Assembly: GCA_964348275.1 (NCBI GenBank)
Contig: CAYGBT010000004.1
Coordinates: 45,449 to 109,448, forward strand
Length of the DNA stretch: 64,000 bases
DNA from: an uncultured bacterium
GTDB lineage: Bacteria; Methylomirabilota; Methylomirabilia; Methylomirabilales; CSP1-5
Direction of reading: 5' to 3'
Of the stretch, positions 3,397 to 59,072 are shown in pieces (position 1 is the stretch's first letter; each line of letters starts with the position of its first letter). Under the pieces are notes generated by a model, which was not told the DNA's origin, made no database searches, and saw only the letters and a program-made list of their open reading frames with translations. The position numbers and the translations under genes were made by a program.

Positions 3397-5189
3397 GAGG
3401 CTCCCCCCAACTTTGAAGTGCCAACCACGATTTCATTTCCCTCCCCAAGTCCTTTATCCATGGCCTGTAACGCCTCCGAGCGAATCCGTCCGGCCCGGTA
3501 GGCGCGGATGAAGGCCTCCACCACCTTGGGGTCGAACTGAGACCCTGCACATCGCTGGATTTCCCTAACCGCCGCTTCGTCGCTGATCCGTGGACGGTAG
3601 GGGCGGTCTGTGGTCATCGCGTCGAAGGTATCGGCCACGGCGATGATCCGGGATGCCATCGGAATCTCTTCCCCTTTTAGTCCGTCCGGATATCCCTGCC
3701 CATCGCACCGCTCCTGATGATGTCGCACCGCCGGAATTACGGCGTCGAGCTGCTTGATCGGGGCTAGGATCTCCGCCCCCAGTTCTGGATGCTCCCGGAT
3801 ATGCGCCAGCTCATCGGGAGTCAGGGGTCCGTCCTTTTGGAGCACCACATCTCGGATACCAATCTTGCCCACGTCGTGTAAGATGGCAGCAAGATGAAGC
3901 GTCTCCGTCTCCTCGGAGTTTAGGGTCAACTCCTCCCCTACGGTTAGGCAGATCTCGACCACCCGCCGGACATGGCCCCCCGTGTAGGGATCCCGCTTCT
4001 CGATCGCTTCGGCCAAGGTCGCCGCCGTACTCAAGAAGGTCTCCTTCACCTCTTCATAGAGTCGGGCATTTTCAATGGCAATACCCACCTGGCGAGACAG
4101 CGACTCAAACAGGCGTTGATCCTCCGCATCGAAGGGACGATCGGTGCGTCGGTTAAGAGCCTGCAGAACCCCGATGATCCGGTCCCGACTCTTGACGGGG
4201 ACGCAGATCATGTTTCGGGTGATGAAATGGGTTCGGAAGTCGACCCGTCGTGAAAACCGCGGATCTCGGCGCACGTCGCTCACAACGGTTGGCTTCCCCG
4301 TCTTGGCCACCCATCCAGCGATGCCCTCTCCGACCTTGAGCCGGACCTCCTTGACCTCCCTTCCCCGCTCTCCCAAAGCCACTTCGAAAACCAACTCGTC
4401 GCATTCTTCGTTTAGGAGGAGGAGGGATCCCACCTCACACTCCATGAGCCGGGTCGCGGCCTCAACGGCTAGCCGCAGCACTTCTGAGATTTGGAGCGTG
4501 GAGTTTAGAATGGCACTCAGCTCCATCAGGGTCGATGACTGAACGACCCGTTTTGCCGCCTCGGAGTAGAGTCGGGCGTTTTCCATTGTCATTCCCAACT
4601 GGTGTCCCATGGTGGTAGCCATCTCGGTATCTCGGGGGTCGAAGGCAGGAGAAGGCGGAAACCGCAGCAGTTCCAGCACTCCGACGATGCGGCCAGAGAC
4701 GCGGAGCGGAAGGACGAGAAGCGAAGCCCGCCCCCCCCTATATCGAGGAATGACCCAACCGTGCGGCCGTGCCCCGACGGTGCGAAGGAGCACGGTCTCG
4801 TCACCCGTGAAAAGCCCGCGGCGATACCCTCGCTTGAGGGAGACACTCTCCAGGGAGACTGTGGATCCATCGGTGCCCCGCTGAAGCCCAAAGAGGACCG
4901 TTTGTTTATCGGGATCGATCTGCAAGAGGATGCCGTAATCGGCTTCCAGGGTCTCGATAATGATTTTCAAGAGCAGATGGAAAAGCGATTCAGGCCGTAA
5001 GGTATTCGTGGACGCCCGGCGGATCGCCCTGAGCAGCTTGATGCGAAGGTCCTGTGTTTTCAACTCATTTTCCAGGACGGCAATCCGTGCCTGCTGACGG
5101 TCGAGCTGTTTCTGGTAGAGGGCCAGGAGCCGCCGCACTGCGAGTGGAGATTCCGGCTCGGTCCGGCGTGCCTGGCGATGTTTGCCCAC
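3393..5189 (-). CDS. GAF-GAF-HD-GYP domain protein (putative c-di-GMP phosphodiesterase)
   Basis: N-terminal coiled coil and two GAF-like regions. The C-terminus has AAILHDVGKI and HHERCDGQGYPDGL (HD-GYP signature). GTG start 8 nt after the trpA stop, preceded by GGAGAAGAGG. Confidence 0.85.
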   Translation of the reverse strand: MGKHRQARRTEPESPLAVRRLLALYQKQLDRQQARIAVLENELKTQDLRIKLLRAIRRASTNTLRPESLFHLLLKIIIETLEADYGILLQIDPDKQTVLFGLQRGTDGSTVSLESVSLKRGYRRGLFTGDETVLLRTVGARPHGWVIPRYRGGRASLLVLPLRVSGRIVGVLELLRFPPSPAFDPRDTEMATTMGHQLGMTMENARLYSEAAKRVVQSSTLMELSAILNSTLQISEVLRLAVEAATRLMECEVGSLLLLNEECDELVFEVALGERGREVKEVRLKVGEGIAGWVAKTGKPTVVSDVRRDPRFSRRVDFRTHFITRNMICVPVKSRDRIIGVLQALNRRTDRPFDAEDQRLFESLSRQVGIAIENARLYEEVKETFLSTAATLAEAIEKRDPYTGGHVRRVVEICLTVGEELTLNSEETETLHLAAILHDVGKIGIRDVVLQKDGPLTPDELAHIREHPELGAEILAPIKQLDAVIPAVRHHQERCDGQGYPDGLKGEEIPMASRIIAVADTFDAMTTDRPYRPRISDEAAVREIQRCAGSQFDPKVVEAFIRAYRAGRIRSEALQAMDKGLGEGNEIVVGTSKLGGAS

Positions 5190-5197
5190 CTCTTCTC

Positions 5198-5992
5198 CTA
5201 TGGCATTGCCTGCTTCAAGCTCCGGACAAATCCGGCCACTTCACTGACGATCCCGGGGTCGCCGCTTGCTCGTTCCACGCGCTCCACGATGGCCGATCCC
5301 ACGATCACCCCGTCGGCGAGCTTCGCAACCTGCGACACCTGAGCGGGCGTACTGATGCCAAATCCGACCGCGATCGGCATGTCGGTCAACCGCCGCAAGC
5401 GACTCAGGGAAAGCTCAAGATCGGTCTGCATGGTATCCCTGGCCCCCGTTACTCCTTTCAGGGAAACGTAGTAAATGTATCCCTGAGAGGACTCGGCGAT
5501 GCGCCGGAGCCGTACGTCGGTGCTCGTTGGTGCAGCCAGAAAGATGGTATGAACCGCAGCGGCCGCACAGCAGCGTTGCAATTCTTGGGCCTCTTCGGGA
5601 GGGAGATCTGGCACGATGACCCCGTCCACTCCCGCATCGCCAGCCCGGATGGCAAACTCGTGCGCGCCCGTGCGGAGGATCGGATTGATGTAGCTCATGA
5701 GGACGACGGGGATTTGGGATTTGCCGCGGATCTGCTCGACCAATCCGATGACCCTTTTCAGCGTGACCCCACTCTCCAGGGCCCGCTGACTGGCACGCTG
5801 GATGGTGGTCCCATCGGCCAGGGGATCAGAAAAGGGAACCCCGAGCTCGAGGAGGTCTGCCCCTACCTCTTCAAAGGCCCACGCCAACTCCCGGGTGGTG
5901 GATAGGTCCGGATCCCCCGCCGTGATGAAAGGAATCAAGGCCTTCCGTCCGGTCGCTCGAAGTTCCTGAAATCGCCGGTCAATCCGGTTCAT
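5198..5992 (-). CDS. trpA: Tryptophan synthase alpha chain
   Basis: 264 aa; ...ALIPFITAGDPDL...GVPFSDPLADG...; last gene of the trp cluster. Confidence 0.93.
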   Translation of the reverse strand: MNRIDRRFQELRATGRKALIPFITAGDPDLSTTRELAWAFEEVGADLLELGVPFSDPLADGTTIQRASQRALESGVTLKRVIGLVEQIRGKSQIPVVLMSYINPILRTGAHEFAIRAGDAGVDGVIVPDLPPEEAQELQRCCAAAAVHTIFLAAPTSTDVRLRRIAESSQGYIYYVSLKGVTGARDTMQTDLELSLSRLRRLTDMPIAVGFGISTPAQVSQVAKLADGVIVGSAIVERVERASGDPGIVSEVAGFVRSLKQAMP

Positions 5993-5999
5993 GATCTGC

Positions 6000-6087
6000 G
6001 TTCACGGTTGATGGTTCACGGTTCACAGCTACCCATTCGGAACCCTCCCGTCTATCAACTGTGCACCGTGAGCTGTCACCTATCACC
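6000..6087. repeat. Heptamer-array hairpin element H1 (trpB/trpA junction)
   Basis: Left arm GTTCACG GTTGATG GTTCACG GTTCACA GC (6000-6029). Right arm TATCAAC TGTGCAC CGTGAGC TGTCACC TATCACC (6053-6087) is the imperfect reverse complement. The right arm overlaps the trpB stop codon. Confidence 0.75.
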
Positions 6088-7266
6088 GAGGCGGGCCACG
6101 AGTTCAACGTCCTTATCCCCGCGTCCGGAAAGGTTGATGAGCAGGATGTCATTTGCCCCCATCGCGGCCGACAGCGGGATGGCATAGGCAATGGCGTGTG
6201 CACACTCCAAGGCGGGAATAATACCTTCAAGGTTGGCAAGGAGCCGGAAGCCCTGGAGGGCCTCCTCATCAGTCACCGAGACGTATGACGCACGGCCAGT
6301 CTCCCTGAGGTGCGTATGCTCGGGTCCGACGCTCGGATAGTCGAGCCCTGCCGACACAGAGTGTGTGGTCTGGATTTGGCCGTCTCCGTTTTGCAGGACG
6401 TAGCTCAGCGTTCCATGAAGGACTCCCGGCTCGCCAGCCGCAAACCGAGCTGCGTGTCTCCCCGATTCGATCCCCAACCCTCCTGCCTCGACGCCGATCA
6501 TCCGAACGCCGGCATCTTCAATGAAGGGATAAAAGAGACCGATCGCGTTCGATCCTCCCCCTACACAGGCAAGCAGGACGTCCGGGAGCCGTCCCTCCGC
6601 CTCGAGCATCTGGCCTCGCGCCTCCCGGCCAATGACCGACTGAAAGTCACGGACCATCATGGGAAAGGGATGAGCCCCTAGGACAGAACCCAGCACATAG
6701 TGAGTGTGCTCAACATTCGTCACCCAATCCCGCATGGCCTCGTTGATGGCGTCCTTCAATGTCCGGCTCCCCGCATCGACTGGTGTCACTTCGGCCCCCA
6801 AAAGCTGCATACGAAACACGTTGAGGGCCTGACGTTGCATATCCTCCGTCCCCATGTAGACCCGACACTCAAGACCGAAGAGGGCGGCGGCGGTCGCCGT
6901 CGCCACGCCGTGCTGTCCTGCTCCCGTCTCCGCGATGACTCTCCGCTTTCCCATCCGGCGGGTCAGCAGCACCTGTCCGAGCGTGTTATTGATCTTATGG
7001 GCACCGGTGTGGCAGAGATCTTCCCGCTTCAGGTAAATCTTTGGGCCTCCAAGCTTCTCGGTCAGACGCTGGGCAAAATAGAGGGGCGTTGGTCTGCCAG
7101 CGAACTTTCGCAAATAATGGTCCAATTCGGTTTGGAAGCTTGGGTCTTGTTGGGCCTCGCGAAATGCCCGCTCGAGCTCCTCCAGGGGAGCCATTAAGGT
7201 CTCGGGAACATACCGGCCCCCATACCGCCCAAAATGGCCCTCATGATCTGGAACAGACCACCTCAT
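6076..7266 (-). CDS. trpB: Tryptophan synthase beta chain
   Basis: ...[15 protein letters not shown]...HTGAHKINN...GGGSNAIG... Start set to ATG 7266 ([13 protein letters not shown]), which forms an ATGA overlap with the trpF stop. Confidence 0.93.
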
Positions 7267-7880
7267 TGTGCCTCCCGCACGCATGTCACGAAATCCCGGA
7301 CCTTCTTGGGATCCTTGCGGCCAGGTTCTGCCTCCACTCCACTTGACACATCAACCCCGTAGGGTTGTATCTGCCGGATCACCTCGGCGACATTTTCCGG
7401 GGTGAGGCCTCCCGCGATGATGACACGTCCAAAGGCCTTGGCGGACGATGCAACCTCGAGGGGGAACCGCTGGCCGGTGCCTCCGAGCTTCCCCGCCACG
7501 AACGTGTCCAAGAGATAGGCATGCACGCGGTAGGCCTCGAAGGGCGGCAGCCCTTGGCCGCCCCCGATACGGAAGGCCTTGATGACCGATCCGGTCACGC
7601 GTCGACAATACTCGGGTGCCTCGGACCCGTGAAGCTGCACCACCCGGAATCCACATCGCTTCATCAGCCCTTCGACTTCCTCAACCGGATGATCGGCAAA
7701 GAGCCCCACCGGCGTCACCAGAGGAGGCAGATTGTTGATAATGGCCAGGGCCGTCTCCGGATCGACGTATCGAGGAGTTCCCGGGACGAAGACGAAACCC
7801 AGGGCATCGGCGCCGACGTCGGCCGCCAGCTCGGCGTCCTTGGCGTTCGTGATCCCGCAGATCTTAACCCGAACCGCCAT
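7263..7880 (-). CDS. trpF: Phosphoribosylanthranilate isomerase
   Basis: [31 protein letters not shown]... Start moved to ATG 7880; the 83-codon extension in the ORF track lies inside trpC. 17-nt overlap with the trpC end. Confidence 0.9.
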
Positions 7881-8667
7881 ACCCCCTCCCCAAGAGCTCC
7901 CGGACCTTTGCCTCCACGTCGCGGGCCCGAAGGACCCCCTCTCCGACCAAAACGGCATCGATCCCAGCCGCTTCGAGGCGGGCAACCTCCCTTTGATCGT
8001 TGATGCCGCTTTCGCTGACAACGACACGATCTGGTGGAATCTCCGGGATGAGTGCAAAGGTGGTATCCAGGGAGACCTTGAACGTCTTGAGGTCCCGGTT
8101 GTTGATCCCCACGATGGGGACCTTGGCATCCAGAGCGGTATGCAGCTCTTCGCGCGTGTGGATCTCCGTGAGGGGGTGGAGGCCTATCTCCTGGGAGAGG
8201 GCCAGCAGGTCTTGCAAGGTTTGCGGCTCCAAGACGGCCGCAATCAAAAGGACCGCGTCGGCCCCCCATGCACGGCTCTCGTAGACCTGATAGGGATCAA
8301 GAATGAAGTCCTTGCGGAGGACCGGCAGAAAGGCACTTGCCTTGGCCCGGGCCAGGTCGTGCAAGTTTCCGCGGAAAAAGGGCTCATCGGTCAGGATGGA
8401 AAGCGCCGCCGCTCCCCCACCGGTATAGGCTGAGATCAGGGCCTCGAGGTCGAATTCCTGCCGGATGATTCCTTGGGAGGGAGACGCCCGCTTCACCTCA
8501 GCGATCAACCGGATCCGCTCATCGCTCGACTGGCGATCCACCGCTTGGTGGAAGTCGCGAGGAGATGGTAGATCCCGAATCTGAGCCTTGAGGTCTTGGA
8601 GCGGGACCGCCACCTTTCGGGCAGTCACCTCTTCGCGCTTCGCTTTCACAATCTTCTCTAAAATCAT
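7864..8667 (-). CDS. trpC: Indole-3-glycerol-phosphate synthase
   Basis: MILEKIVKAKREEV...LIAEVKRASPSQG...LRKDFI...INNRDL... Confidence 0.92.
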   Translation of the reverse strand: MILEKIVKAKREEVTARKVAVPLQDLKAQIRDLPSPRDFHQAVDRQSSDERIRLIAEVKRASPSQGIIRQEFDLEALISAYTGGGAAALSILTDEPFFRGNLHDLARAKASAFLPVLRKDFILDPYQVYESRAWGADAVLLIAAVLEPQTLQDLLALSQEIGLHPLTEIHTREELHTALDAKVPIVGINNRDLKTFKVSLDTTFALIPEIPPDRVVVSESGINDQREVARLEAAGIDAVLVGEGVLRARDVEAKVRELLGRGYGGSG

Positions 8668-8672
8668 TTCCC

Positions 8673-8739
8673 GCTGTCAGCTGTCGGCAGTCAGCCGTCA
8701 GCATTCACTCCTTTACGCTGACCGCTGATAGCCGATTGC
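8673..8739. repeat. Heptamer-array hairpin element H2 (trpD/trpC junction)
   Basis: Left arm GCTGTCA GCTGTCG GCAGTCA GCCGTCA GC (8673-8702), 14-nt loop, right arm GCTGACC GCTGATA GCCGATT GC (8717-8739). 18/23 positions are complementary by hand count. Confidence 0.75.
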
Positions 8740-8758
8740 TCGTGCTGTGTGTTGCACC

Positions 8759-9802
8759 TCATTGCTTACAGAAGGCGACCACCTTCTCCAATGTGTTCCA
8801 GGCAGTCCCGCTTTCAATGGATCGTTCTGCAGTGACGATCCCTTCCTGCATGTCTTGCGCGCCCCCACCAGCAACGATGGCGGCACCCGCGTTCAACACG
8901 ACGATGTCTCGCCGGGGCCCCTTGGCTCCTTGAAGGATCTGCCTGATGATCTCGGCGTTCGCAGCGGCATCGCCCCCCCTGAGGTCGGCCAGCCGTGCTC
9001 GGGCAATCCCGAAATCCTCCGGCTGGACGAAGTATGTTCGTATGTGGCCGTTGTGCACTTCGGAGATCTTGGTCTCGGCGATAGTGGAGATCTCATCGAG
9101 GCCATCCATCCCATGGACGACAAAGGCCCGGTGGCAGCCCAGCTCGTTCATAACACCCGCCAAGAGCTCGGTGAGCGCCCCATCGTACACGCCGATCACC
9201 TGCGCGGGAGCACTCGCGGGATTGGTCAAGGGCCCGAGGATATTGAAAAGCGTCCGGATCCGGATCTCGCGACGCGCCGACATGACAAATTTCATGGCCG
9301 GGTGAAGCAGCGGGGCAAAGAGAAACCCGATCCCGACCTCGTCAATACATCGGCCCACGCGCTCAGGCGCAAGATCGAGCAGAACACCGAGCGCCTCGAT
9401 CACATCGGCACTCCCGCACGGCCCGGACACACCACGGTTGCCATGTTTGGCCACGGGAATGCCCGCTCCCGCAACGACAAAAGCCGCCGCGGTAGAGATA
9501 TTGAAGGTCCCTTGGGCGTCCCCTCCGGTCCCGCATGTGTCCACCAGCATCGGCTTGCCCAGATGGGGCCTCGCCTGCGCGCCCGCATGCCGGGTGGGCA
9601 CCGGAGTTACTTTATCCCGCATCACGCGGGCAAAGCCACAGAGCTCCTCGACGGTCTCTCCTTTTATCCGCATGGCGGTCAGGAAGGCAGCAACTTGCGC
9701 ATCGGTAGCCTGGCCAGACATGAGGAACTCCATGACCTGGGCGGCCTCCTCCCGGCTGAGGTCCGTTCCGTCCACCACCTTATGAAGAGCCTCCACGATC
9801 AT
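8759..9802 (-). CDS. trpD: Anthranilate phosphoribosyltransferase
   Basis: ...DTCGTGGD...FNISTAAAFVVAGAG..VAKHGNR... Confidence 0.93.
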   Translation of the reverse strand: MIVEALHKVVDGTDLSREEAAQVMEFLMSGQATDAQVAAFLTAMRIKGETVEELCGFARVMRDKVTPVPTRHAGAQARPHLGKPMLVDTCGTGGDAQGTFNISTAAAFVVAGAGIPVAKHGNRGVSGPCGSADVIEALGVLLDLAPERVGRCIDEVGIGFLFAPLLHPAMKFVMSARREIRIRTLFNILGPLTNPASAPAQVIGVYDGALTELLAGVMNELGCHRAFVVHGMDGLDEISTIAETKISEVHNGHIRTYFVQPEDFGIARARLADLRGGDAAANAEIIRQILQGAKGPRRDIVVLNAGAAIVAGGGAQDMQEGIVTAERSIESGTAWNTLEKVVAFCKQ

Positions 9803-9816
9803 TGCTCAGCCATCCC

Positions 9817-9883
9817 GCTGTCAGCGATCGGCAATCAGCTTCTGGCCTTTCAACACCAATGGCCACTGCTGACAGCTGACTGC
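9817..9883. repeat. Heptamer-array hairpin element H3 (trpG/trpD junction)
   Basis: Left arm GCTGTCA GCGATCG GCAATCA GC (9817-9839), right arm GCTGACA GCTGACT GC (9868-9883). Shares the flank TCCCGCTGTCAGC with H2. Confidence 0.7.
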
Positions 9884-9884
9884 A

Positions 9885-10448
9885 TTACACCCTGAGAAAG
9901 TTTCGCAAGAGATCTTTACCCACCGCGGTCAGGATCGACTCCGGGTGAAATTGCACCCCTTCTACCTGATGCTCCCTGTGGCGAAGCCCCATCAGCTCCC
10001 CCTCGACCGTCTGTGCTGTAATTTCGAGACAGGCGGGAAGACTCTCCCGCTCCACGACCAGACTGTGATAGCGAGTCGCCTCGAAAGGGTTGGGAAGATT
10101 TCGAAAGATGGTGCCTCCGTCATGCTGGATCAAGGAGGTCTTTCCATGCATCAGCCGTTCAGCTCGAACGATTCTCCCCCCAAACGCCGCTCCGATACAC
10201 TGATGCCCGAGACAGACCCCCAGGATAGGGATACGACCCGCAAAGGCCAAGATCAGGTCGCACGAAATTCCCGCCTCCTTCGGGGTGCAGGGGCCAGGCG
10301 AAATGACAATCCGCGCCGGACGAAGGTCTTCCACCTCGTTCAGGCTTACCTTGTCATTCCGGACCACATGGACCTTCTCACCAAGTTCCCCAAGGTATTG
10401 GACCAGGTTGTAGGTAAAGGAATCGTAATTGTCGATAACAAGAACCAT
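9885..10448 (-). CDS. trpG: Anthranilate synthase component II (glutamine amidotransferase)
   Basis: [19 protein letters not shown]...GVCLGHQ...QFHPES triad motifs. Confidence 0.93.
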
Positions 10449-10458
10449 TGCTCCCTCA

Positions 10459-10584
10459 GTTCATGGGTCAGGCTTCATAGTTCAGAATCGATGGTTGACG
10501 GTTCACCGCTCTCTGTCGAGACGTTGCGTATCACGTTGTAACCGTTCTAGGTTCTCCATGAACCATGAACTATGAACTATGAAC
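10459..10584. repeat. Heptamer-array hairpin element H4 (trpE/trpG junction)
   Basis: Left arm is 7 heptamers: GTTCATG GGTCAGG CTTCATA GTTCAGA ATCGATG GTTGACG GTTCACC (10459-10507). Right arm CATGAAC CATGAAC TATGAAC TATGAAC (10557-10584) contains the trpE stop and its last codons. Further GTTCAC/GTGAAC units continue to ~10622 inside trpE. Confidence 0.75.
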
Positions 10585-12108
10585 CGCATCGTCGGTGAGC
10601 GGTTCACGGTCCACGGGTGAACTTTCGAGGCCTCTCTCGGCCATCTCGATGGCCCGAAGCATCCCCGCGGCCTTGTTCAGGGTCTCTTGATACTCCCGCT
10701 CCGGGTCCGAGTCAGCCACAATTCCAGCTCCTGCCTGAATCCATGCCCGCTCTTTGGTGAAAAGGACGGTCCGAATAGTGATGCAGGTATCCATATTGCC
10801 AGAGAAGCTGAGGTAGCCGACCGCGCCTGCATAAGGGCCCCGTTTGGCCGGCTCCAGCTCTTCGATGATTTCCATCGCCCTGATCTTCGGAGCCCCGCTC
10901 ACCGTCCCGGCCGGAAACGAAGCACGGAGCAGGTCAAAGGCGTCGAGCCCTTGCTGGAGACGACCCCGAACATTCGACACGATGTGCATGACGTGGGAGT
11001 ATCGCTCGATCACCATCAGCTCGTTGACCTCCACGCTTCCCGGTACGGCGACGCGACCGACATCATTCCGTCCAAGATCAACAAGCATGATATGCTCCGC
11101 CCGCTCCTTCGGATCCTCCAAAAGCTCGGCGGCCAGCGCCTGGTCTTCAGACTCGTGACGGCCTCGAGGCCTGGTCCCGGCGATGGGGCGTAAGTCGATC
11201 TGTCCCTCTTCCAAGCGCACTAAAACCTCAGGAGAACTCCCCGCTACTGATAGATCTCCCAGGCGGAGGAAGTACATGTACGGAGATGGGTTAATGATGC
11301 GCAGGGCACGGTAGACGTCAAAGGGCTGAGCGCCCGTCTTGACCTCGAGCCGCTGCGAAAGCACCGCCTGGATAATGTCTCCTGCCGCCACATATTCCTT
11401 GCACTTCAACACTGCCCCACAGAAGCCATCATGGGAAAAGGTCGACCTCGTCTCTAGCGTGCGGGGCGAGAGTGGAGCGAGCAACGGCCGATCAAGCGGT
11501 TTCCGGAGATCGGCAACCAATGCCTCGATCTTCGACAGAGCATGATCATACGCGGCCTCGAGTGTGCTGGCTGCGGTGTCAGGGACAAAGGCATTCGATA
11601 CCACCTGGATCCGCTGACTCAGGTTGTCGAAAATGAGCAGCGTATCCGTAAGCAGGAATACGGCATCGGGGAGCTCCATGTCGTCATCGGTCAGATCTGG
11701 AAGGGTTTCGAAAAAACGAACGGCATCATAGGCCAGATACCCTACCATGCCGCCGAAAAAGCGCGGCAGGCCGTCTACCTTGACGGGCCGATAGACGCTG
11801 AGGGCCTCCTTGACCAGATCGAGCGGATCAGTGATCGTTCGCGTCTCAACTTGCAGCCCCGACCGCAGGAGCTCCGCCTGCCCCTCCTTGGTCCGAATCA
11901 CCAAGAAGGGATTGCGCCCCAGGAAGCTGTATCGGGCCCATTTTTCCCCTCCTTCGACGCTTTCCAGGAGGAAAGCGGTTTCCCCTCCCCCAATCTTCAG
12001 GAAGGCCGATACGGGGGTCTCGATATCAGCGAGGACCTCGCGGTAGACTGGGATCAGGTTACCGAGGCGAGCCTTTGCTTTGAATTCATTTCGAGACGGG
12101 TAATACAT
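10570..12108 (-). CDS. trpE: Anthranilate synthase component I
   Basis: ...LLESVEGGE...GAPKIRAMEIIEELE...GAGIVADSDPE... Start set to ATG 12108 (MYYPSRNEF) with GGGAG 8 nt upstream; the ORF-track start at 12123 is a TTG. Confidence 0.92.
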   Translation of the reverse strand: MYYPSRNEFKAKARLGNLIPVYREVLADIETPVSAFLKIGGGETAFLLESVEGGEKWARYSFLGRNPFLVIRTKEGQAELLRSGLQVETRTITDPLDLVKEALSVYRPVKVDGLPRFFGGMVGYLAYDAVRFFETLPDLTDDDMELPDAVFLLTDTLLIFDNLSQRIQVVSNAFVPDTAASTLEAAYDHALSKIEALVADLRKPLDRPLLAPLSPRTLETRSTFSHDGFCGAVLKCKEYVAAGDIIQAVLSQRLEVKTGAQPFDVYRALRIINPSPYMYFLRLGDLSVAGSSPEVLVRLEEGQIDLRPIAGTRPRGRHESEDQALAAELLEDPKERAEHIMLVDLGRNDVGRVAVPGSVEVNELMVIERYSHVMHIVSNVRGRLQQGLDAFDLLRASFPAGTVSGAPKIRAMEIIEELEPAKRGPYAGAVGYLSFSGNMDTCITIRTVLFTKERAWIQAGAGIVADSDPEREYQETLNKAAGMLRAIEMAERGLESSPVDREPLTDDAVHSS

Positions 12109-12135
12109 AAAAGACTCCCGCAAGTAGAGGACGAT

Positions 12136-12164
12136 AAACTAGCATGACCAAAAGAAAAGGTCAA
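12136..12164 (-). promoter_or_regulatory. Candidate sigma70-type promoter of the trp operon
   Basis: Minus strand reads TTGACC (12164-12159), 17 nt, TAGTTT (12141-12136), about 25 nt upstream of the trpE ATG. Confidence 0.4.
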
Positions 12165-12285
12165 GCGTCCTTCCTGTGTGAAAGCCTACATTCCCCTGGG
12201 AGATCGGTTATGGACTGGCGACAGAGGTGGGGTTGTACACGGGTGGGGGAAAGTTTGTCCGTAATCGACCCAATGGTATAATTCG

Positions 12286-12618
12286 CTAGCCAAGATAGGT
12301 CCCGATCTTCGATTGAATGGTACCGCGAGGAACCGCGCCGATCACTTGATCGACGCGCTCCCCCCCCTTGAAGAAGAGGAGCGTCGGAATGCTTCGGATG
12401 CCAAAGCGGGCCGCTGTCTGAGGATTCTCATCGACGTTCAACTTGGCGATGGTTACTTTTCCCGCATACTCCTGGGCCAGCTCTTCCAGGATGGGTGCGA
12501 TTATACGACAGGGAGCGCACCACTCCGCCCAAAAGTCGACAACCGTAAGGCCCTGGCCGTCGACGACCTTCTGCTCGAAATCGGCATCGCTCACCTGGAC
12601 GATGTTTTCAGAAGCCAT
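12286..12618 (-). CDS. trxA: Thioredoxin
   Basis: MASENIVQVSDADFEQKV...VVDFWAEWCAPCRIIAP...; thioredoxin fold with a WCAPC (not WCGPC) active site. Start set to the ATG preceded by GGGGGG. Confidence 0.88.
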   Translation of the reverse strand: MASENIVQVSDADFEQKVVDGQGLTVVDFWAEWCAPCRIIAPILEELAQEYAGKVTIAKLNVDENPQTAARFGIRSIPTLLFFKGGERVDQVIGAVPRGTIQSKIGTYLG

Positions 12619-12660
12619 GTTCCCCCCCATGAATGTTTGTTCGCTCGTCGCATTGGATTC

Positions 12661-12689
12661 ATGCTACCCCCGCCCCCCTCCCCTGTCAA
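12661..12689 (-). promoter_or_regulatory. Candidate sigma70-type promoter of trxA
   Basis: Minus strand reads TTGACA (12689-12684), 17-nt G-rich spacer, TAGCAT (12666-12661). Confidence 0.45.
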
Positions 12690-12768
12690 GCGCCTCACCA
12701 ACGGAAGGGAAAGTGATCCTTGTCGTCGTCTAATTGCTGACTTCCCGGTATAAAAAAGCTGGTAGGTC

Positions 12769-29359: not shown

Positions 29360-29818
29360 TTAGCGATTGCCACCTGGACCCATAACACGATTGAGGCGGG
29401 TGTAATCGAAGGTGTCAACCGTCGCAAAGAAGTAGGGCACCTCAAACGCCGCAGACTCCGGCGAGTCCGAACCGTGGACCGCATTGCGCTCAATCCCCGT
29501 GCCAAGATCCCGCCGGATGGTCCCCGGAGACGCCTGAGCGGGGTCCGTCGCCCCCATGATGGCGCGGACAGTTGAAATCGCCCCCTCACCCTCCAAAACC
29601 ATGACCACCGATGGCCCGGAACTCATGAAGACAGTCAAGCTGTCGAAAAACGGTCGTGTCCGGTGGACGTGATAAAACCCCTCCGCCCTCCGCTTATCCA
29701 GATAGACCATTTTGAGGCCACAGATCCGAAGGCCTGCCTCCTCGAAACGGCGAATGACTTCTCCGATCCTACCGGCGGCCACGGCATCCGGTTTCACAAT
29801 GGCGAGTGTTCGCTCCAT
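29360..29818 (-). CDS. ndk: Nucleoside diphosphate kinase
   Basis: [13 protein letters not shown]...[12 protein letters not shown]... Start moved to ATG 29818; the 44-codon upstream extension passes through the hairpin at 29840-29868. Confidence 0.92.
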
Positions 29819-29839
29819 GCCTGCCCCCTGTCTTGAAAC

Positions 29840-29868
29840 AAAGACCACCTGGAACACAGGTGGTCTTT
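29840..29868 (-). terminator. Strong hairpin (12-bp stem, 5-nt loop) with U-rich tails; terminator-like
   Basis: AAAGACCACCTG-GAACA-CAGGTGGTCTTT. On the minus strand it is followed by GUUUCAAG, on the plus strand by UGUCUCG. It lies ~160 nt after the sucD stop and only ~20 nt before the ndk ATG. Confidence 0.5.
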
Positions 29869-29922
29869 TGTCTCGAAGCACCGTGATGTCCACGGCGCAG
29901 CTTCCCGGAATCCTCTTCTTGG

Positions 29923-30030
29923 TCAGTGCCGTTCCAACTATTTTTGCCAACGGTCTCGCTGTACTCGCTCAAGACCCTTGCAACAAGGCAGGCCGCTCAA
30001 ATTCGGCTTATCAAGTTAGAACGGTACTAG
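29923..30030. mobile_element. 108-bp MITE-like element, copy E1 (16-bp terminal inverted repeats)
   Basis: TCAGTGCCGTTCCAAC ...76 nt... GTTAGAACGGTACTAG. The reverse complement aligns ungapped with copy E2 (53805-53912): same length, 49/76 internal positions identical by hand count. The right terminus contains the sucD stop codon. Confidence 0.7.
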
Positions 30031-30902: not shown

Positions 30903-30919
30903 GCCCCTCTTCCCTCGGC

Positions 30920-31003
30920 GTTCACGGTTCACCGTTCACAGTTCACAGACGGACCCGGTAGGAACTGCCTCATACCGTGAACCGTGAACTGTCAACTGTG
31001 AAC
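30920..31003. repeat. Heptamer-array hairpin element H5 (sucC/sucD junction)
   Basis: Left arm GTTCACG GTTCACC GTTCACA GTTCACA G (30920-30948), 26-nt loop, right arm CCGTGAAC CGTGAAC TGTCAAC TGTGAAC (30975-31003). 23/28 positions are complementary by hand count. The right arm carries the sucC stop and its last 3 codons. Confidence 0.8.
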
Positions 31004-32161
31004 TCCTTTGGCGGTTTGGGCGGCCAACTCCGCGGCATCAGCCATCGTTTCGGCATTCACAAAGTTCAATCCTGATTCCTTCAGCATTTGCCTCCCTAGC
31101 TCCACGTTGGTTCCTTCCATCCGAATCACGATGGGGAGAGTGACACCCAGCGCCGTGACAGCCTTGATGACCCCCTCCGCCAACCGGTCACACCGCAAGA
31201 TGCCTCCGAAGATGTTGATCAGGACGACTTTGACGTTCCGGTCCGAGATTAAAATACGGAAGGCGTTCTCGATCTGCTCGGCGCTGGCGCCGCCCCCCAC
31301 ATCCAAGAAGTTAGCTGGTTCGCCCCCAGCCAACTTAATAATGTCCATGGTGGCCATGGCCAGACCAGCCCCGTTGACCATACACCCCACGTTGCCGTCC
31401 AGCTTAATGTAGCTCAAGTCGTACTTTGACGCCTCAACCTCCAGGGGAGACTCCTCGTCCACGTCGCGGAGCGCCAGGACTTCGGTGTGTCGGGAGGTCG
31501 CGTTGTCGTCGAAAGTCATTTTCGCATCCAGGGCGAGCAGGCGGCCATCCCCTGTAATCACCAGCGGGTTAATCTCGGCTAGGGAGCAGTCCTTTGTCTC
31601 AAAGGCGCGGTACAGTCTTATGAGGAAATCGGCCACCCCCTTGAGCGTGTCCCCTGTGACGCCAAGCCCGAACCCCAGCTTGCGGGTGTGGAAACCTTGG
31701 ACGCCCGTGGCCGGATCCACGTGCACCCGTGTGATAGCCTCCGGCCTGGTCAGGGCCACCTCCTCAATGTCCATCCCGCCAGCACTGGAGGCCATAATCA
31801 CTGGCAGGCCGACCGAGCGGTCAATCACGATCCCGAGGTACAGCTCCTGGCGGATGTCCATGGCCTCCTCGACCAGTACGCGCTTCACGCGCTGGCCTTC
31901 CGGCCCAGTCTGATGCGTCCTCAGCATCATCCCCAGGATTTGAGATGCAACCTGCTCTGCCTCATCCGGAGACTTCGCCAGTTTGACGCCGCCCCCCTTG
32001 CCTCGGCCGCCAGCATGGATCTGTGCCTTGACTACCACGGTCCCACCGAGCTCCCGTGCGACGGCTAGAGCCTCAGCTGGCGTTTCGACCACGCGCCCCC
32101 GCGGGACTGGGACCCCAAACTCCGCCAGAATTGCCTTGGCCTGATACTCGTGAATCTTCAT
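30992..32161 (-). CDS. sucC: Succinyl-CoA ligase subunit beta
   Basis: [20 protein letters not shown]... ATP-grasp domain ...NIFGGI... Confidence 0.94.
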
Positions 32162-41374: not shown

Positions 41375-42249
41375 CGAAGTTGTTTGCGTACCTCCTTGGC
41401 CCGCTGAAACTCCTGCATCAGGCGAGTCCCATCCTGCCTCCGAATCATCTCCTCAATCTGCTCGAGAACCTTCCGGAACCTTGCGATGGCCTCCAGTACC
41501 TCTCCGCGATTTTCAATCAGGATATCACGCCACATGACGGGATGAGAGGACGCAATCCGAGTGAAATCGCGAAGCCCACCAGCACTAAACCTCAAAAGAT
41601 CCTCCCCCCCGTCTGCCAGGTTCGCGATGGTTCCGATGAGCGCGTAGGCCACAACATGCGGCAGATGACTCACCAGGGCGAAGATCTGATCGTGTCGGAA
41701 CGGATCCATCAGGACCACGTGAGATCCTACCCTTTCCCATAGGCGAATGACGTGTTTGAGCGCCTCCTCTGGGGTCCGGGAAGTCGGCGTGAGAACACAC
41801 AGGCTTCCATGAAAGAGCCCCGCCGAGGCAGCGTCGGGGCCGGAGCGCTCATTCCCGGCGATTGGATGTGAAGGAACGTAGGATCGGCCGGGAGGGATTT
41901 CTGCCTCCACCTGGGCGACGAGGTCTCCTTTCACACTTCCGACGTCAGTGATGATACATCCCGGCCCGAGATAGGGTCCGATGGCGTGAACCACTTCTGC
42001 CATGGCCCCGATCGGAACCGCTACCACGACAAGGTCGGCCCCTTCTACCCCTGCGGGAAGATCGCCCACTTGGTCGACGAGGCCCAGGGCGAGAGCCTGG
42101 TTCAGATGGGTTCGGTCCGCATCCAGCCCGATCACGCGAGTGGCAATCCCGCCCCGGCAGGCCTGAGCCAGACTCCCCCCGATCAGCCCCACACCAATCA
42201 CTACCATCCGCTCGAACAGCGGCTCTGCCTTTGCTGGATCATGGTTCAT
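41371..42249 (-). CDS. tyrA: Prephenate dehydrogenase
   Basis: ...MVVIGVGLIGGSLA... Rossmann fold plus a PDH domain. The start codon ATGAACC lies inside heptamer array H6. Confidence 0.88.
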   Translation of the reverse strand: MNHDPAKAEPLFERMVVIGVGLIGGSLAQACRGGIATRVIGLDADRTHLNQALALGLVDQVGDLPAGVEGADLVVVAVPIGAMAEVVHAIGPYLGPGCIITDVGSVKGDLVAQVEAEIPPGRSYVPSHPIAGNERSGPDAASAGLFHGSLCVLTPTSRTPEEALKHVIRLWERVGSHVVLMDPFRHDQIFALVSHLPHVVAYALIGTIANLADGGEDLLRFSAGGLRDFTRIASSHPVMWRDILIENRGEVLEAIARFRKVLEQIEEMIRRQDGTRLMQEFQRAKEVRKQLR

Positions 42250-42279
42250 GGTTCAAAGTTCACGGCAGTCAAACTTTCG
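42237..42279. repeat. Heptamer array H6 (aroF/tyrA junction; partial element)
   Basis: GATCATG GTTCATG GTTCAAA GTTCACG, then a short hairpin CAAAGTTCAC-GGCA-GTCAAACTTTG. There is no long opposite arm. A 10-bp palindrome ATTTCGAAAT follows. Confidence 0.55.
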
Positions 42280-42317
42280 AATTTCGAAATCGGTCGGGGG
42301 GTCGGTTATCGCATTGT

Positions 42318-49277: not shown

Positions 49278-51323
49278 TTATCCTCGCGAGGATCCCCGGT
49301 CTGCGTCAAGACGGCTTCGTATGTCCCGGACCCGTAGGCGGATATCCCGAAACTTCGGCGCCTCACTGTAAATGGCAATCAGGGCCTCGAGCGCTTGTTT
49401 TGCGTTGCCAAGTGCCTCATAGGCTGTCGCCAGATCGTAAAGGACACCCCACCGCTCATCAGTGCCCCCCTCTGTCGCAGCAAGCCCCTTGAGCAATTCC
49501 TCGACCGACCGCTCAGGCTCACCCTTCGCCAGAAAGCAAAGGCCTAAAAGGCTCGCGCATCGCACCCGATAGGTGGCATCGTTCGCGGCTAGTCGAAATT
49601 GCTCGATGGCCTTATCGTAGAGCTCCAAATCTTTATAGGCGAGTCCCAAATTGTAGCGGGTCTCATAGTCGGTCACTTCCAACTGATTGCGAATCCCTTG
49701 ATCGAGCTGGTGGAGCATTTTCTGCACCTGTGGATCGAGATCCGACGGCACGGGGACCTCTTCCGGGCTAAGCTCCTGGTTCAACTCACCGGCGAGGTCC
49801 ACGAATTCTCCCTGGGCAGCTCCTGCCTCAGCCACGCGAAAAATTGAGGTCTGCTTCACGTCCGCTGAAGGAATTTCCTCCTTCCCTGATGCTTCCTCCA
49901 ACCGCTCAATTATTGCCAAGTGCTGCTTGGCCAGCGGATGCTCTGGATCCTGCTGGAGAATCCCATGCAAGATGGCTCGGGCCTCTTGTATCATCCCTTG
50001 TTGCAGAAAAAACCTCGCCTCCTGCAGCTGCTCTTCCAGCGCTTGTGGCCCGGCGAGTTCCACCCGCTCTGATGGCTGCTCCGTTTGCATAGCCATCTCC
50101 TCAGATCCTTCCACGGGATCTAATTCGATGACTGCCGGCTCCGTTTCCTCACCAGCTTGGGCCTCCTCGGCAAAGGAGATATACCTCCGCTCCATCATCT
50201 CCTCCGCGGCCCTCAGCCGTTCGGTCTCTTCGTCAGCCCGTTTTGAGGGGAGGTGCTTGAGGTCTTTGTCATCAAGGGATACCGCCCCTTCGGGCTCTGC
50301 ATCAAACCATCCTCCGAGTTCTTCGTGCAGTTCCAAGGTCGGTGAATCTTGTTCCATAGCTGATGACGCTGGCTCAAAAGCTGGTGTCTTTGCCTCAGAA
50401 GCCGGAGAGATTGTTTCGAGCGCGGGGGACGTTTCCTCGAGGACCGGAGACACTTCCTCGATCGCCGGGGACACTTCTTCGAGGGCCGGGGATAGTTCCT
50501 CAACGGCAGGGGAAATTTCCTCCAGGGTCAGTGTGGAATTTTGTTCCACAGAAGGTCCTGAGAAAATCTCAACGGGGGAAGCCTGCTCCGCGATTTTTCC
50601 TCCCGGATCCGCCTGTTCTCCCTCCCCAGGGAACGCCGCCGCCAGTACCTCGTCGCCCCTCGCCTCTGCCTCAGCGGGGTCGAGGAATCGGAGCGCATCT
50701 GCGAAGCTTGCCGCTTCGGCCGCCCGACCTTGGGACTGCAAAGCCGCCACCGCCCCTTCGTAAATCTGCCGCGCCGCCTCGGCCTGCCCTTCCATCACAA
50801 GGCGCTCTCCCAGGGCATTGAGCTTGGCTAACGACTCACCGACCCTTTCGGGCCTTACCAGGATCCCCACGACCTTGGACAAGGTCGGGCGATGTCCTGG
50901 GTCCATTAGGATAATTTTTTCATATATTTCTAGCGTCCGGGACACATCCCCCTTCTTGAGGTAAGTATCGGCAAGTCCATGGAACTGAAGCTTCGCTTCC
51001 GCAACCAGGCCTTGGTCGGCGTACAACTCGGCGCAAGCGAGCGAGGCGTCCGCATTCGATAGATCGAGCCTGAGCACCTTCTTGTAAACCGCAATAGCCC
51101 GCTCATAAAAGCCATCCGCCCGGTAGACGTCTGCGAGGCGCATGAAGTACGCGATAGCCTCCGACCTATTCCCGATCCGGGCGCAGAGGTCCCCAAGGGC
51201 GTTCAGCACATTACAGTTACTCGGATCGGCCCCCAGGATCGCCTGATATTCAGCGATAGCCCGATCGAGTTTTCCCTGTTGGACGTAGTTTAAGGCAGTT
51301 TGTAGCTGCTTTCGCTTCGCCAT
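49278..51323 (-). CDS. TPR-repeat protein with central acidic heptapeptide-repeat linker
   Basis: 681 aa. TPR-like helices at both ends, with an acidic Glu/Ser/Pro-rich middle. Confidence 0.75.
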   Translation of the reverse strand: MAKRKQLQTALNYVQQGKLDRAIAEYQAILGADPSNCNVLNALGDLCARIGNRSEAIAYFMRLADVYRADGFYERAIAVYKKVLRLDLSNADASLACAELYADQGLVAEAKLQFHGLADTYLKKGDVSRTLEIYEKIILMDPGHRPTLSKVVGILVRPERVGESLAKLNALGERLVMEGQAEAARQIYEGAVAALQSQGRAAEAASFADALRFLDPAEAEARGDEVLAAAFPGEGEQADPGGKIAEQASPVEIFSGPSVEQNSTLTLEEISPAVEELSPALEEVSPAIEEVSPVLEETSPALETISPASEAKTPAFEPASSAMEQDSPTLELHEELGGWFDAEPEGAVSLDDKDLKHLPSKRADEETERLRAAEEMMERRYISFAEEAQAGEETEPAVIELDPVEGSEEMAMQTEQPSERVELAGPQALEEQLQEARFFLQQGMIQEARAILHGILQQDPEHPLAKQHLAIIERLEEASGKEEIPSADVKQTSIFRVAEAGAAQGEFVDLAGELNQELSPEEVPVPSDLDPQVQKMLHQLDQGIRNQLEVTDYETRYNLGLAYKDLELYDKAIEQFRLAANDATYRVRCASLLGLCFLAKGEPERSVEELLKGLAATEGGTDERWGVLYDLATAYEALGNAKQALEALIAIYSEAPKFRDIRLRVRDIRSRLDADRGSSRG
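50334..50522 (-). repeat. 9 x 21-nt in-frame tandem repeat (heptapeptide EExSPAx)
   Basis: EEISPAV EELSPAL EEVSPAI EEVSPVL EETSPAL ETISPAS EAKTPAF EPASSAM EQDSPTL, read from the minus strand. Confidence 0.85.
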
Positions 51324-53147: not shown

Positions 53148-53150
53148 AGC

Positions 53151-53225
53151 TTCACGGATGACGGTTCACAGTCCACAGACACGAGGGAACCGAGACGAAC
53201 GGGAATCGTCAACAGTGAACGATAA
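53151..53225. repeat. Heptamer-array hairpin element H7 (hpf/rapZ junction)
   Basis: CTTCACG GATGACG GTTCACA GTCCACA ... CGTCAAC AGTGAAC GAT. Imperfect inverted arrays. The left arm abuts the rapZ ATG with no SD. Confidence 0.6.
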
Positions 53226-53239
53226 ACCGTAAAGGGTGT

Positions 53240-53804: not shown

Positions 53805-53912
53805 CTAGTGCCGTTCCAACCTGATAAGCCCAATGAGACCTGTGCGTCTTGTTACAACAGGCACGAAAGCGTCCAGTGAGAAAATTGGCACAAGTCGTTG
53901 GAACGGCATTAG
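53805..53912. mobile_element. 108-bp MITE-like element, copy E2
   Basis: CTAGTGCCGTTCCAAC ...76 nt... GTTGGAACGGCATTAG; the termini are 15/16 complementary. Flanked by TA/TA if the termini are taken as GTGCC.../...GGCAT. The right terminus contains the rpoN stop codon. Opposite orientation to E1. Confidence 0.7.
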
Positions 53913-58615: not shown

Positions 58616-58789
58616 AGCCGCTAAGGGAAGACAAGAATAGCCTCCTTCCCTGAGGGAAACAGGTAAGCCTTCGAGCGCGTGATCGTCAGGGTGCCGGCAA
58701 TGCTGGCCCCCTCATTTCACGGTGGATCCGTCCTGGGGATTCTGGATAATTGATCCTCCTTCGACTCAGATCATCGGAATATAATTACA

Positions 58790-58809
58790 GCTGGGGGGAC
58801 ACCCCCAGC
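58790..58809 (-). terminator. GC-rich hairpin, intrinsic-terminator-like, 12 nt after the mini-ORF stop
   Basis: Minus-strand RNA GCUGGGGG-UGUC-CCCCCAGC (8 perfect bp) followed by UGUAAUUAUAUU. This is A/U-rich but not a clean U-tract. Confidence 0.55.
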
Positions 58810-58821
58810 CAGGTACCACCT

Positions 58822-58887
58822 CTATTTCTTCTTAGTGGCCTTTTTCTTCTTTGCCGGCTTCTTGGCGGCCTTCTTCTTCTTTGCCAT
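58822..58887 (-). CDS. Mini-ORF, 21-aa poly-lysine peptide MAKKKKAAKKPAKKKKATKKK
   Basis: ATG 58887 to TAG 58822. AGGAGGTGA is 6 nt upstream. An in-frame TGA lies immediately 5' of the ATG. Paralogous to the neighbouring mini-ORF. Confidence 0.5.
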   Translation of the reverse strand: MAKKKKAAKKPAKKKKATKKK

Positions 58888-58945
58888 TCAGTCTCACCTC
58901 CTTTCTTTCGGAGATCGTTCTTCGCGACCTAGCGAGGCACCTCTC

Positions 58946-59008
58946 TTATTTCTTCTTCTTGGGAGCTGCCTTCTTCGTAGTCTTTTTCGCCTTCCGCTTG
59001 GCTGCCAT
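58946..59008 (-). CDS. Mini-ORF, 20-aa lysine-rich peptide MAAKRKAKKTTKKAAPKKKK
   Basis: ATG 59008 to TAA 58946. GGGGGTGA is 6 nt upstream. An in-frame TGA lies 3 codons upstream. Same SD/ATGGCA context as the other mini-ORF. Confidence 0.5.
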   Translation of the reverse strand: MAAKRKAKKTTKKAAPKKKK

Positions 59009-59072
59009 TCCGTCTCACCCCCTTTCCTCGCAGGTCATCCCCCGCGACCCAGCTCAGGGGATGGGTTACACG

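Follow-up and report, generated by a model that had tools for sequence, protein, structure and literature searches.

In an uncultured bacterium of the phylum Methylomirabilota, every spacer between neighboring genes of the complete tryptophan operon trpEGDCFBA is filled by a hairpin of tandem seven-nucleotide repeats, which raises the question of whether these elements serve the operon or are only accommodated by it. The operon lies in a stretch of 64,000 nucleotides of contig CAYGBT010000004.1, hereafter the window, whose first letter is position 1. We suggest that the trp elements are probably heptameric simple-sequence-repeat arrays in an inverted-pair layout, that is, copies of an intergenic repeat which occurs genome-wide and across phyla, turns over by slippage and is tolerated in gene junctions, rather than a device specific to trp.

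Anatomy of the array hairpins

All seven genes of the operon were identified by NCBIfam models, and all lie on the minus strand:

10570-12123, minus strand: trpE, NCBIfam model match
9885-10448, minus strand: trpG, NCBIfam model match
8759-9802, minus strand: trpD, NCBIfam model match
7864-8667, minus strand: trpC, NCBIfam model match
7263-7883, minus strand: trpF, NCBIfam model match
6076-7284, minus strand: trpB, NCBIfam model match
5198-5992, minus strand: trpA, NCBIfam model match

Their junctions hold four elements:

10459-10625, minus strand: trpE/trpG element (E/G), a heptamer hairpin running into trpE
9803-9884, minus strand: trpG/trpD element (G/D), a heptamer hairpin
8668-8758, minus strand: trpD/trpC element (D/C), a heptamer hairpin
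5993-6075, minus strand: trpB/trpA element (B/A), a heptamer hairpin

The gene pairs trpC/trpF and trpF/trpB overlap. The other junctions have spacers of 121 nt (E/G), 82 nt (G/D), 91 nt (D/C) and 83 nt (B/A), and nearly all of each is taken up by two tandem heptamer arrays, one the reverse complement of the other, on either side of a ~30-nt loop. On the mRNA strand, the unit reads GTTCAYN ... NRTGAAC at E/G and B/A, and GTCAGCN ... NGCTGAY at G/D and D/C. A preliminary description of the locus had placed array hairpins at these four junctions and assigned them these two unit types; lag-7 identity and a period-7 scan bear out the hairpins, and the unit types were recovered as well. Its headline count of four of five junctions was wrong, since seven genes have six junctions and the proportion is four of six, as its body text had it. 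The 3′ flank that it had found common to the G/D and D/C elements was also confirmed: GCTGACAGCGGGA has exact copies only at 8669-8681 and 9813-9825, the 3′ ends of the D/C and G/D elements, and three matches when one mismatch is allowed, compared with 0.12 expected by chance.

The 5′ arm of the E/G element on the mRNA is GGTTCATA GTTCATA GTTCATG GTTCATG (plus-strand coordinates 10556-10585, as for all arms below), which includes the TAG stop codon of trpE, and its degenerate 3′ arm reads GGTGAAC CGTCAAC CATCGAT TCTGAAC TATGAAG ... CATGAAC (10459-10509). TrpE of relatives terminates in ...AIEMAEAGL(E/D); that of the window has 16 more residues, SSPVDREPLTDDAVHSS (10570-10622), a non-conserved tail that is encoded by array units, contains an additional GTTCACC/CGTGAAC mini-hairpin (10595-10625) and ends at a TAG that is itself part of a GTTCATAG unit. 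This reach of the element into trpE explains why the preliminary description had let the structures end at 10622. In the G/D element, the 5′ arm GCAGTCAGCTGTCAGCAG (9866-9883) begins 1 nt past the trpG stop, and the 3′ arm is GAAGCTGATTGCCGATCGCTGACAGCGGGA (9813-9842). The arms of the D/C element are AATCGGCTATCAGCGGTCAGCG (8716-8737) and GCTGACGGCTGACTGCCGACAGCTGACAGCGGGA (8669-8704), the latter ending about 10 nt ahead of the trpC ATG. The B/A element begins directly past the trpB TGA with CAGCTCACGGTGCACAGTTGATAG (6052-6075), and its 3′ arm GCTGTGAACCGTGAACCATCAACCGTGAACG (5999-6029) ends 8 nt ahead of the trpA ATG. Altogether, stems begin 1-4 nt past the stop codons of trpG and trpB, and that of trpE is itself part of a stem. 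Because the sequence of the junctions is identical in three independent assemblies (L081-L083; L-numbers label retrieved loci or contigs), the trp arrays are not an assembly artefact.

Period 7 was the sole period between 4 and 12 that yielded arrays in the 64 kb (five runs, against none for each other period), and Tandem Repeats Finder (TRF) lists the arrays too. Lag-7 self-identity was 0.44-0.55 in the four trp spacers and at most 0.35 in the other short co-directional spacers of the window, three further array sites excepted:

30918-31005, minus strand: sucC/sucD element, four GTTCACN units, a loop and four NGTGAAC units; predicted fold −58.2 kcal/mol, z −4.6
53148-53239, minus strand: hpf/rapZ element, a degenerate GTTCAYN/GTTGAC hairpin; lag-7 identity 0.52, fold z −1.5
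42234-42317, minus strand: aroF (DAHP synthase)/tyrA array, one-armed NATGAAC, abutting or overlapping the tyrA start; no hairpin, z −0.5

All seven array-bearing spacers thus counted lie between co-directional genes of conserved operons (four in trp, and one each in sucCD, aroF-tyrA and hpf-rapZ), six of the seven have the convergent stem-loop layout, and five are found within aromatic amino-acid operons, namely the four of trp and that of aroF-tyrA. Arrays fill all four trp spacers, compared with three among the roughly 20 remaining short spacers between co-directional genes (Fisher p ~0.003, hand calculation), a contrast subject to selection bias, as the locus had been flagged for this very contrast. 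In the aroF/tyrA spacer, the array is followed by palindromic TTTCGAA heptamers (~42275-42295); self-complementary TTTCGAA/AATTCGA heptamers were seen both in this spacer (42270-42296) and in the trpE/trpG junctions of the related loci L087 (5-24) and L090 (81-100).

Folds predicted for the mRNA strand of the trp elements differ in quality. The best of the four is that of D/C (−40.8 kcal/mol, z −4.35), followed by E/G, extended to 190 nt (−61.1 kcal/mol, z −2.6), and B/A (−33.5 kcal/mol, z −2.2), while that of G/D is the weakest (−36.0 kcal/mol, z −1.4). By these predictions, the D/C hairpin is convincing and the G/D hairpin is marginal.

Turnover among relatives and spread across phyla

Retrieval by TrpD puts the window in the Methylomirabilota (NC10). 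The same junctions were compared in loci selected by trpD (L001-L080) and in further contigs, the nearest species-level relatives having 75-80% identity in TrpD and 87-90% in TrpG. Close relatives (L001, L005, L084, L087, L089 and L090) carry the unit family of the window at the corresponding junction, with different unit counts and with some units decayed, and these differences fit the local amplification that the preliminary description had considered. Other relatives carry different heptamers at the same junctions (GAGACCG, GGTGACT, TTCGAAA and GGACATC), and in three loci heptamers at trp junctions are replaced by the octamers NGTTCGGC, GTACGASR and GTTCGARG (L006, 7324-7402 and 9102-9129; L009, 3557-3593 and 5255-5325; L007, 9051-9383). 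In L007, the D/C spacer has grown to 425 nt made of arrays, and an array hairpin is present even in the C/F junction. The D/C junction of L090 has one array inside the loop of another, and that of L087 holds instead a different palindromic element of ~100 nt with terminal inverted repeats.

There are also relatives without arrays at these junctions. In L008, L010, L033, L034 and L037 the spacers measure −4 to 30 nt, and in L002 they measure 13 nt at E/G and 30-51 nt elsewhere. Most junctions of L013 and L014 are compact, the exceptions being G/D (74 nt in L013 and 142 nt in L014) and the E/G spacer of L014 (1669 nt), which appears to hold an inserted gene. The G/D junctions of L002 and L004 retain a single-unit hairpin (AGTCAGGCG..CGCCTGAT), possibly the seed or the remnant of an array. 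According to the preliminary description, arrays are present wherever a junction has a spacer. This is true of the trp operon in the window, but as a causal reading it is probably reversed: because array-free relatives have short or overlapping junctions, with spacers of −4 to ~50 nt, it would be the array that makes the spacer. Short-read contigs of some relatives start within the trpE/trpG array (L084-L086 at position 1, and likewise L087 and L088 at position 1), which suggests that arrays break assemblies in the manner of dispersed repeats.

The arrays are spread far beyond the operon and the phylum. A scan of metagenomes for exact matches to three GTTCACN units found arrays in more than 120 contigs with 35-75% G+C, and none of the 80 contigs tested had trp genes near the array. 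An inverted partner lies 10-100 nt away from 66 of 171 GTTCACN arrays (39%), compared with a direct partner for five (3%); inverted pairs have a median loop of 32 nt and occur in both topologies, GTTCAC..GTGAAC and GTGAAC..GTTCAC. Arrangement as a hairpin is therefore a genuine feature of these arrays in general. Hairpins of 7- or 8-nt arrays were also found, among the loci selected by trpD, in or beside trp genes of Blastocatellia, Chloracidobacterium, Actinomycetota, Poribacteria and other metagenome-assembled genomes (L019, 9059-9175; L025, 3655-3785; L043, L050, L053, L062, L067 and L069), with the units GCAGAGGA, TTCTGGC, GCTGATG and AT-rich heptamers. The earlier proposal that the architecture is conserved while the unit sequence is not holds in the window, in its relatives and across phyla, and the hairpin layout, rather than the unit sequence, is the conserved property. 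The accompanying idea that whatever heptamer was present had been amplified is not supported: non-orthologous sites have the same two families of units, not only within the window but also among its relatives and in phyla unrelated to it.

Repeat turnover, regulation or mobility

We propose that a short palindromic seed in a small intercistronic spacer is the starting point of an element, and that replication slippage adds and removes 7-nt units on each arm, out-of-register pairing of the repeated arms making it easier. The arrays would homogenize locally, drift and decay, and would sometimes be swapped for another unit family or for a small palindromic element. They would persist in co-directional junctions through tolerance of a self-folding insert, which would loop itself out, bring neither promoter nor terminator and keep the stop and start codons spatially close.

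There is no sign of a purpose-built regulator at the trp junctions. A consensus scan detected neither promoter-like nor terminator-like sites in the four junctions, and a U-tract is absent after all four stems. No Rfam family matched the whole window at gathering thresholds, and a permissive scan of 5900-12700 found nothing but a chance match to sR32 within trpD. Ahead of the operon (12136-12164, minus strand), a TTGACC-17 nt-TAGTTT promoter-like site, unflagged by the consensus scan, can be made out by eye about 12 nt upstream of the start of the longest trpE open reading frame (ORF); a promoter so close to the trpE start would leave too little space for an attenuator in a leader. Neither TRAP-like binding nor TrpR-like tandem operators agreed with the period and sequence of the arrays, and both were dropped. 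TRAP sites consist of nine to eleven (G/U)AG triplets with 2-3 nt between them; the arrays have a period of 7, GTCAGCN units are without (G/U)AG, and the units do not fit TRAP-bound (G/U)AG triplets at 5-6 nt spacing. We also noticed that GGUGAAC/GGUGAUC units resemble an extended Shine-Dalgarno sequence, the complement of the 16S 3′ tail, a resemblance that GTCAGCN units do not fit.

Several observations weigh against an account by slippage and tolerance. The preliminary description had proposed to align the trp junctions of related strains for array-length polymorphism; unit numbers do vary among relatives, but no polymorphism was seen at the strain level, where L081-L083 are the only near-identical assemblies, represent the same strain and have identical junctions. 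The E/G spacer of the window is 81% identical to that of L084, as compared with 48-67% at four-fold degenerate sites of the flanking genes, and the final three NATGAAC units ahead of the trpG start are kept in six relatives, which hints at constraint on the part of the array next to the start. In both the minimum-free-energy and the centroid fold of E/G, the Shine-Dalgarno sequence of trpG pairs with CCUC of the trpE tail, a predicted pairing that would suit translational coupling. The recurrence of the unit families GTGAACN and GCTGAYN in several phyla is left unexplained by undirected slippage. Finally, counts over the trpD-selected loci, in which related genomes are not independent and shared ancestry is a confounder, gave 28 arrays inside trp operons (three of them intragenic false hits) versus five in flanks of about equal length (p=2e-4, ~5-fold per kb), and, per junction, 16/108 in trp operons versus 5/98 in flanks (p=0.02, ~3-fold). 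This array preference for trp operons is suggestive, and it is not obviously predicted by pure tolerance.

The main rival explanation, which we consider unlikely, is that the hairpins are selected post-transcriptional elements that set the relative output of the trp cistrons, be it by blocking 3′-5′ exonucleases, by stalling terminating ribosomes where a stem begins within 15 nt of a stop codon, or by masking ribosome-binding sites until the upstream gene is translated. The elements would form long imperfect stem-loops without a U-tract within the polycistronic trp mRNA. In E. coli, repetitive extragenic palindromic (REP) sequences are documented both to stabilize mRNA and to stall ribosomes that terminate no more than 15 nt away from the element (PMC12306157). 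By analogy, the trp stem-loops could slow 3′-5′ decay or impede ribosomes that terminate within 15 nt, a distance found at E/G, G/D and B/A; an effect on mRNA decay or translational coupling is possible at E/G and B/A. The closeness of the stems to the trpG and trpB stops, the trpE stop within its stem, the predicted pairing of the trpG Shine-Dalgarno sequence, the conservation of the E/G spacer and of the units adjacent to the trpG start, and the modest enrichment of arrays in trp operons across lineages all speak for this explanation. In addition, three of the window elements stand between subunit genes of heteromeric enzymes (trpE/trpG, trpB/trpA and sucC/sucD).

Selection on structure, one of the two readings that the preliminary description had offered, was not borne out by tests at the RNA level. 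Among 20 array-bearing trp junctions, 11 favor folding of the sense strand and nine that of the antisense strand, with no bias and no asymmetry of the G·U type. Seven orthologous G/D junctions gave no in-register alignment, and RNAalifold found in them neither a shared hairpin nor compensatory pairs. The two arms have their unit composition in common, but pairing of the seventh base in mirror order between them showed no gain over unit-shuffled controls (40 vs 42.5 ± 2.2). One-armed arrays have no preferred orientation relative to neighboring genes (27 vs 25). An initial orientation bias (33:12 and 39:16) was rejected as an artefact of ORF calling, since stop codons (TGA) and start codons (GTG) within the GTGAAC units determine the ends of called ORFs; it was gone (27:25) once strands were assigned independently of the arrays. 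Many relatives with the same operon have lost the elements or have them decayed, the G/D element folds no better than shuffled sequences, and the aroF/tyrA array does not fold. With four elements of two unit types in one conserved operon, each missing in some natural relatives, the locus is a compact test bed for this question. Should the elements turn out to influence mRNA decay or translational coupling, they would add to operon tuning a general layer that has been overlooked; if not, they would be a clean example of repeat turnover creating intercistronic spacers, and even new protein tails.

A further possibility, which we regard as doubtful, is that the array hairpins, far from being passive microsatellites, are an unrecognized, cross-phylum class of structured elements with a dedicated mechanism for their making or maintenance, used in operons such as trp, here devoid of an attenuator, to couple or uncouple the translation of cistrons. 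The preferred units GTGAACN and GCTGAYN, the period of 7 or 8 nt, the loop of ~30 nt and the 13-fold inverted excess would be features of such a class, and the mechanism might amplify units on a hairpin template or rely on a conserved protein that binds or processes the arrays.

It would also be tempting to see in these elements non-autonomous mobile DNA akin to REPINs (REP doublets forming hairpins) or miniature inverted-repeat transposable elements (MITEs), in which an inverted doublet is moved by a transposase, such as a RAYT/IS200-type enzyme acting on DNA hairpins, and each unit family is a separate element family. Inverted doublets are over-represented in REPINs, and in the present arrays they far outnumber direct pairs. 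A few unit families occupy many non-orthologous sites in many genomes, and the pattern GTGAAC-GTGAAC-GTCAAC-GTGAAC is common to the sucCD element of the window and an unrelated site in L002. The nesting of arrays and the replacement by another palindromic element at one site, as well as the contigs of relatives that break within the E/G array as they would in dispersed repeats, point in the same direction. Mobility is the weaker rival because nothing beyond the unit of 6-7 nt is conserved between copies: loops, arm lengths and flanks differ. Moreover, neither a terminal tag nor a target-site duplication was seen at the window elements, the period shifts to 8 at the same junctions in sister lineages, and no transposase gene is evident near any element in the 64-kb window. 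We therefore hold this idea to be improbable.

Least plausible, and in our view very improbable, is that the heptamers are reiterated sites for a sequence-specific DNA- or RNA-binding protein (a trp or aromatic regulator, or an RNA binder of the cold-shock, S1 or Csr type, as put forward for TAACTGA repeats), as the conserved core hexamer with its free seventh base, the five of seven window arrays in aromatic amino-acid operons and similar proposals for Beggiatoaceae (PMC4679880) and for Nostoc heptamers (bioRxiv 10.1101/2022.06.06.494920) might suggest, for one operon here has two unrelated unit types, relatives have yet other units and periods at the same junctions, none of the 80 metagenome contigs with GTTCACN arrays placed them near trp genes, and the arrays show no orientation preference; a trp-specific binding protein in particular is unlikely.

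Relation to described repeats

The trp elements belong to a known but unexplained class, the heptameric long simple-sequence repeats (LSSRs), defined as tandem repeats that have units of 5-11 nt and exceed the length expected by chance in the genome concerned. As cited in two later papers, heptamers are, in many bacteria, the most over-represented LSSRs, and their proposed origin is polymerase slippage (Mrazek et al. 2007, via PMC4679880 and PMC4692102). The window arrays exceed the length expected by chance, all seven are intergenic between co-directional genes, six of the seven are convergent, and unit number and sequence vary between related genomes at the same locus (the trp junctions of L001-L011, L084, L087, L089 and L090).

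The closest described case is that of the GGGAATC arrays of Xanthomonas (Rehm et al. 2015), which likewise consist of tandem 7-nt units, typically in 3-5 copies and with one variable position, lie in intergenic DNA mostly between co-directional ORFs and frequently form convergent arrays able to fold into a stem-loop. There are 70-75 such convergent pairs per genome, mostly near the upstream stop codon, they differ between sister species at the same loci, and no function has been demonstrated for them (PMC4692102). The trp elements differ in their units (GTTCAYN and GTCAGCN, which have no G-quadruplex potential), in clustering within one operon and in supplying, in one case, the stop codon and C-terminal tail of TrpE. 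They extend the phenomenon to the Methylomirabilota, a phylum of nitrite-dependent methane oxidizers; we found no description of such repeats in the literature on Methylomirabilis. Three observations may be new: that a few unit families reappear in different phyla, that inverted pairs exceed direct ones 13-fold, and that trp operons are possibly preferred.

The short tandemly repeated repetitive sequences (STRRs) of Cyanobacteria offer a second comparison. The STRR3 unit is CAACAGT, and GAACAGT, the reverse complement of a GTTCACT-type unit, is one base off. Together with the TAACTGA repeats, STRRs resemble the present arrays in being dispersed non-coding heptamers, often just upstream of start codons, and in that one unit is common to phyla as distant as Beggiatoaceae, Cyanobacteria and Bacteroidetes (MacGregor 2015, PMC4679880). 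They are described mainly as direct repeats, with one indirect repeat in a Beggiatoaceae genome (PMC4679880), whereas the inverted pair in operon junctions dominates in the present arrays. On low-G+C metagenome contigs, we observed GTTCACT arrays directly beside other heptamer arrays (L107, ~4830-4985; L165, ~7700-7845; L142 and L168). In L107 and L165 they adjoin CAGTTAT arrays, which are the other strand of the TAACTGA repeat of Beggiatoaceae and Cyanobacteria.

REP sequences, bacterial interspersed mosaic elements (BIMEs) and REPINs share with the trp elements that they are hairpin-forming extragenic repeats inside operons, with over-represented doublets. They differ in having a consensus of 20-40 nt, a GTAG or CGTC tag and a cognate RAYT transposase; the trp elements share only the 6-7 nt unit, their arms are internally tandem-repetitive, and the window copies have no 20-40 nt palindromic consensus and no consistent GTAG/CGTC tag, with no transposase found in the window. 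Nor do they resemble MITEs, as their arms consist of tandem arrays, their internal loops have no relationship to one another, and no target-site duplication was seen at their ends. Intrinsic terminators and trp attenuators are likewise stable stem-loops in or ahead of trp genes, yet the trp elements have no U-tract, leader peptide or Rfam match and sit between cistrons rather than in the leader. The four junctions gave no hit resembling an intrinsic terminator (a G+C-rich stem with a U-tract), and no relevant covariance model, be it of a trp leader attenuator, a T-box or another curated RNA family, matched.

The window contains other repeats. A second palindromic element of ~104 nt, MITE-like in looks, has the terminal inverted repeats (C)YAGTGCCGTTCCAAC ... 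GTTGGAACGGCAYTAG and occurs in two copies, one between sucD and its downstream neighbor gene of 29360-29950 (29925-30028) and one between rpoN and hpf (53807-53910; fold −41 kcal/mol, z −3.9); it also occupies the trpD/trpC junction of L087 and L088 (1755-1926). On the minus strand at 58616-59072, two tandem tiny ORFs encode the lysine-rich peptides MAAKRKAKKTTKKAAPKKKK and MAKKKKAAKKPAKKKKATKKK, each preceded by a similar ribosome-binding region (GGGGGTGAGAC and GGAGGTGAGAC), and TRF reports 30-nt repeats at 58828-58885. At 50416-50526, about five copies of a 21-nt (or 42-nt) tandem repeat lie inside a 681-residue ORF (49278-51323), where the 21-nt repeat probably codes for a 7-residue protein repeat.

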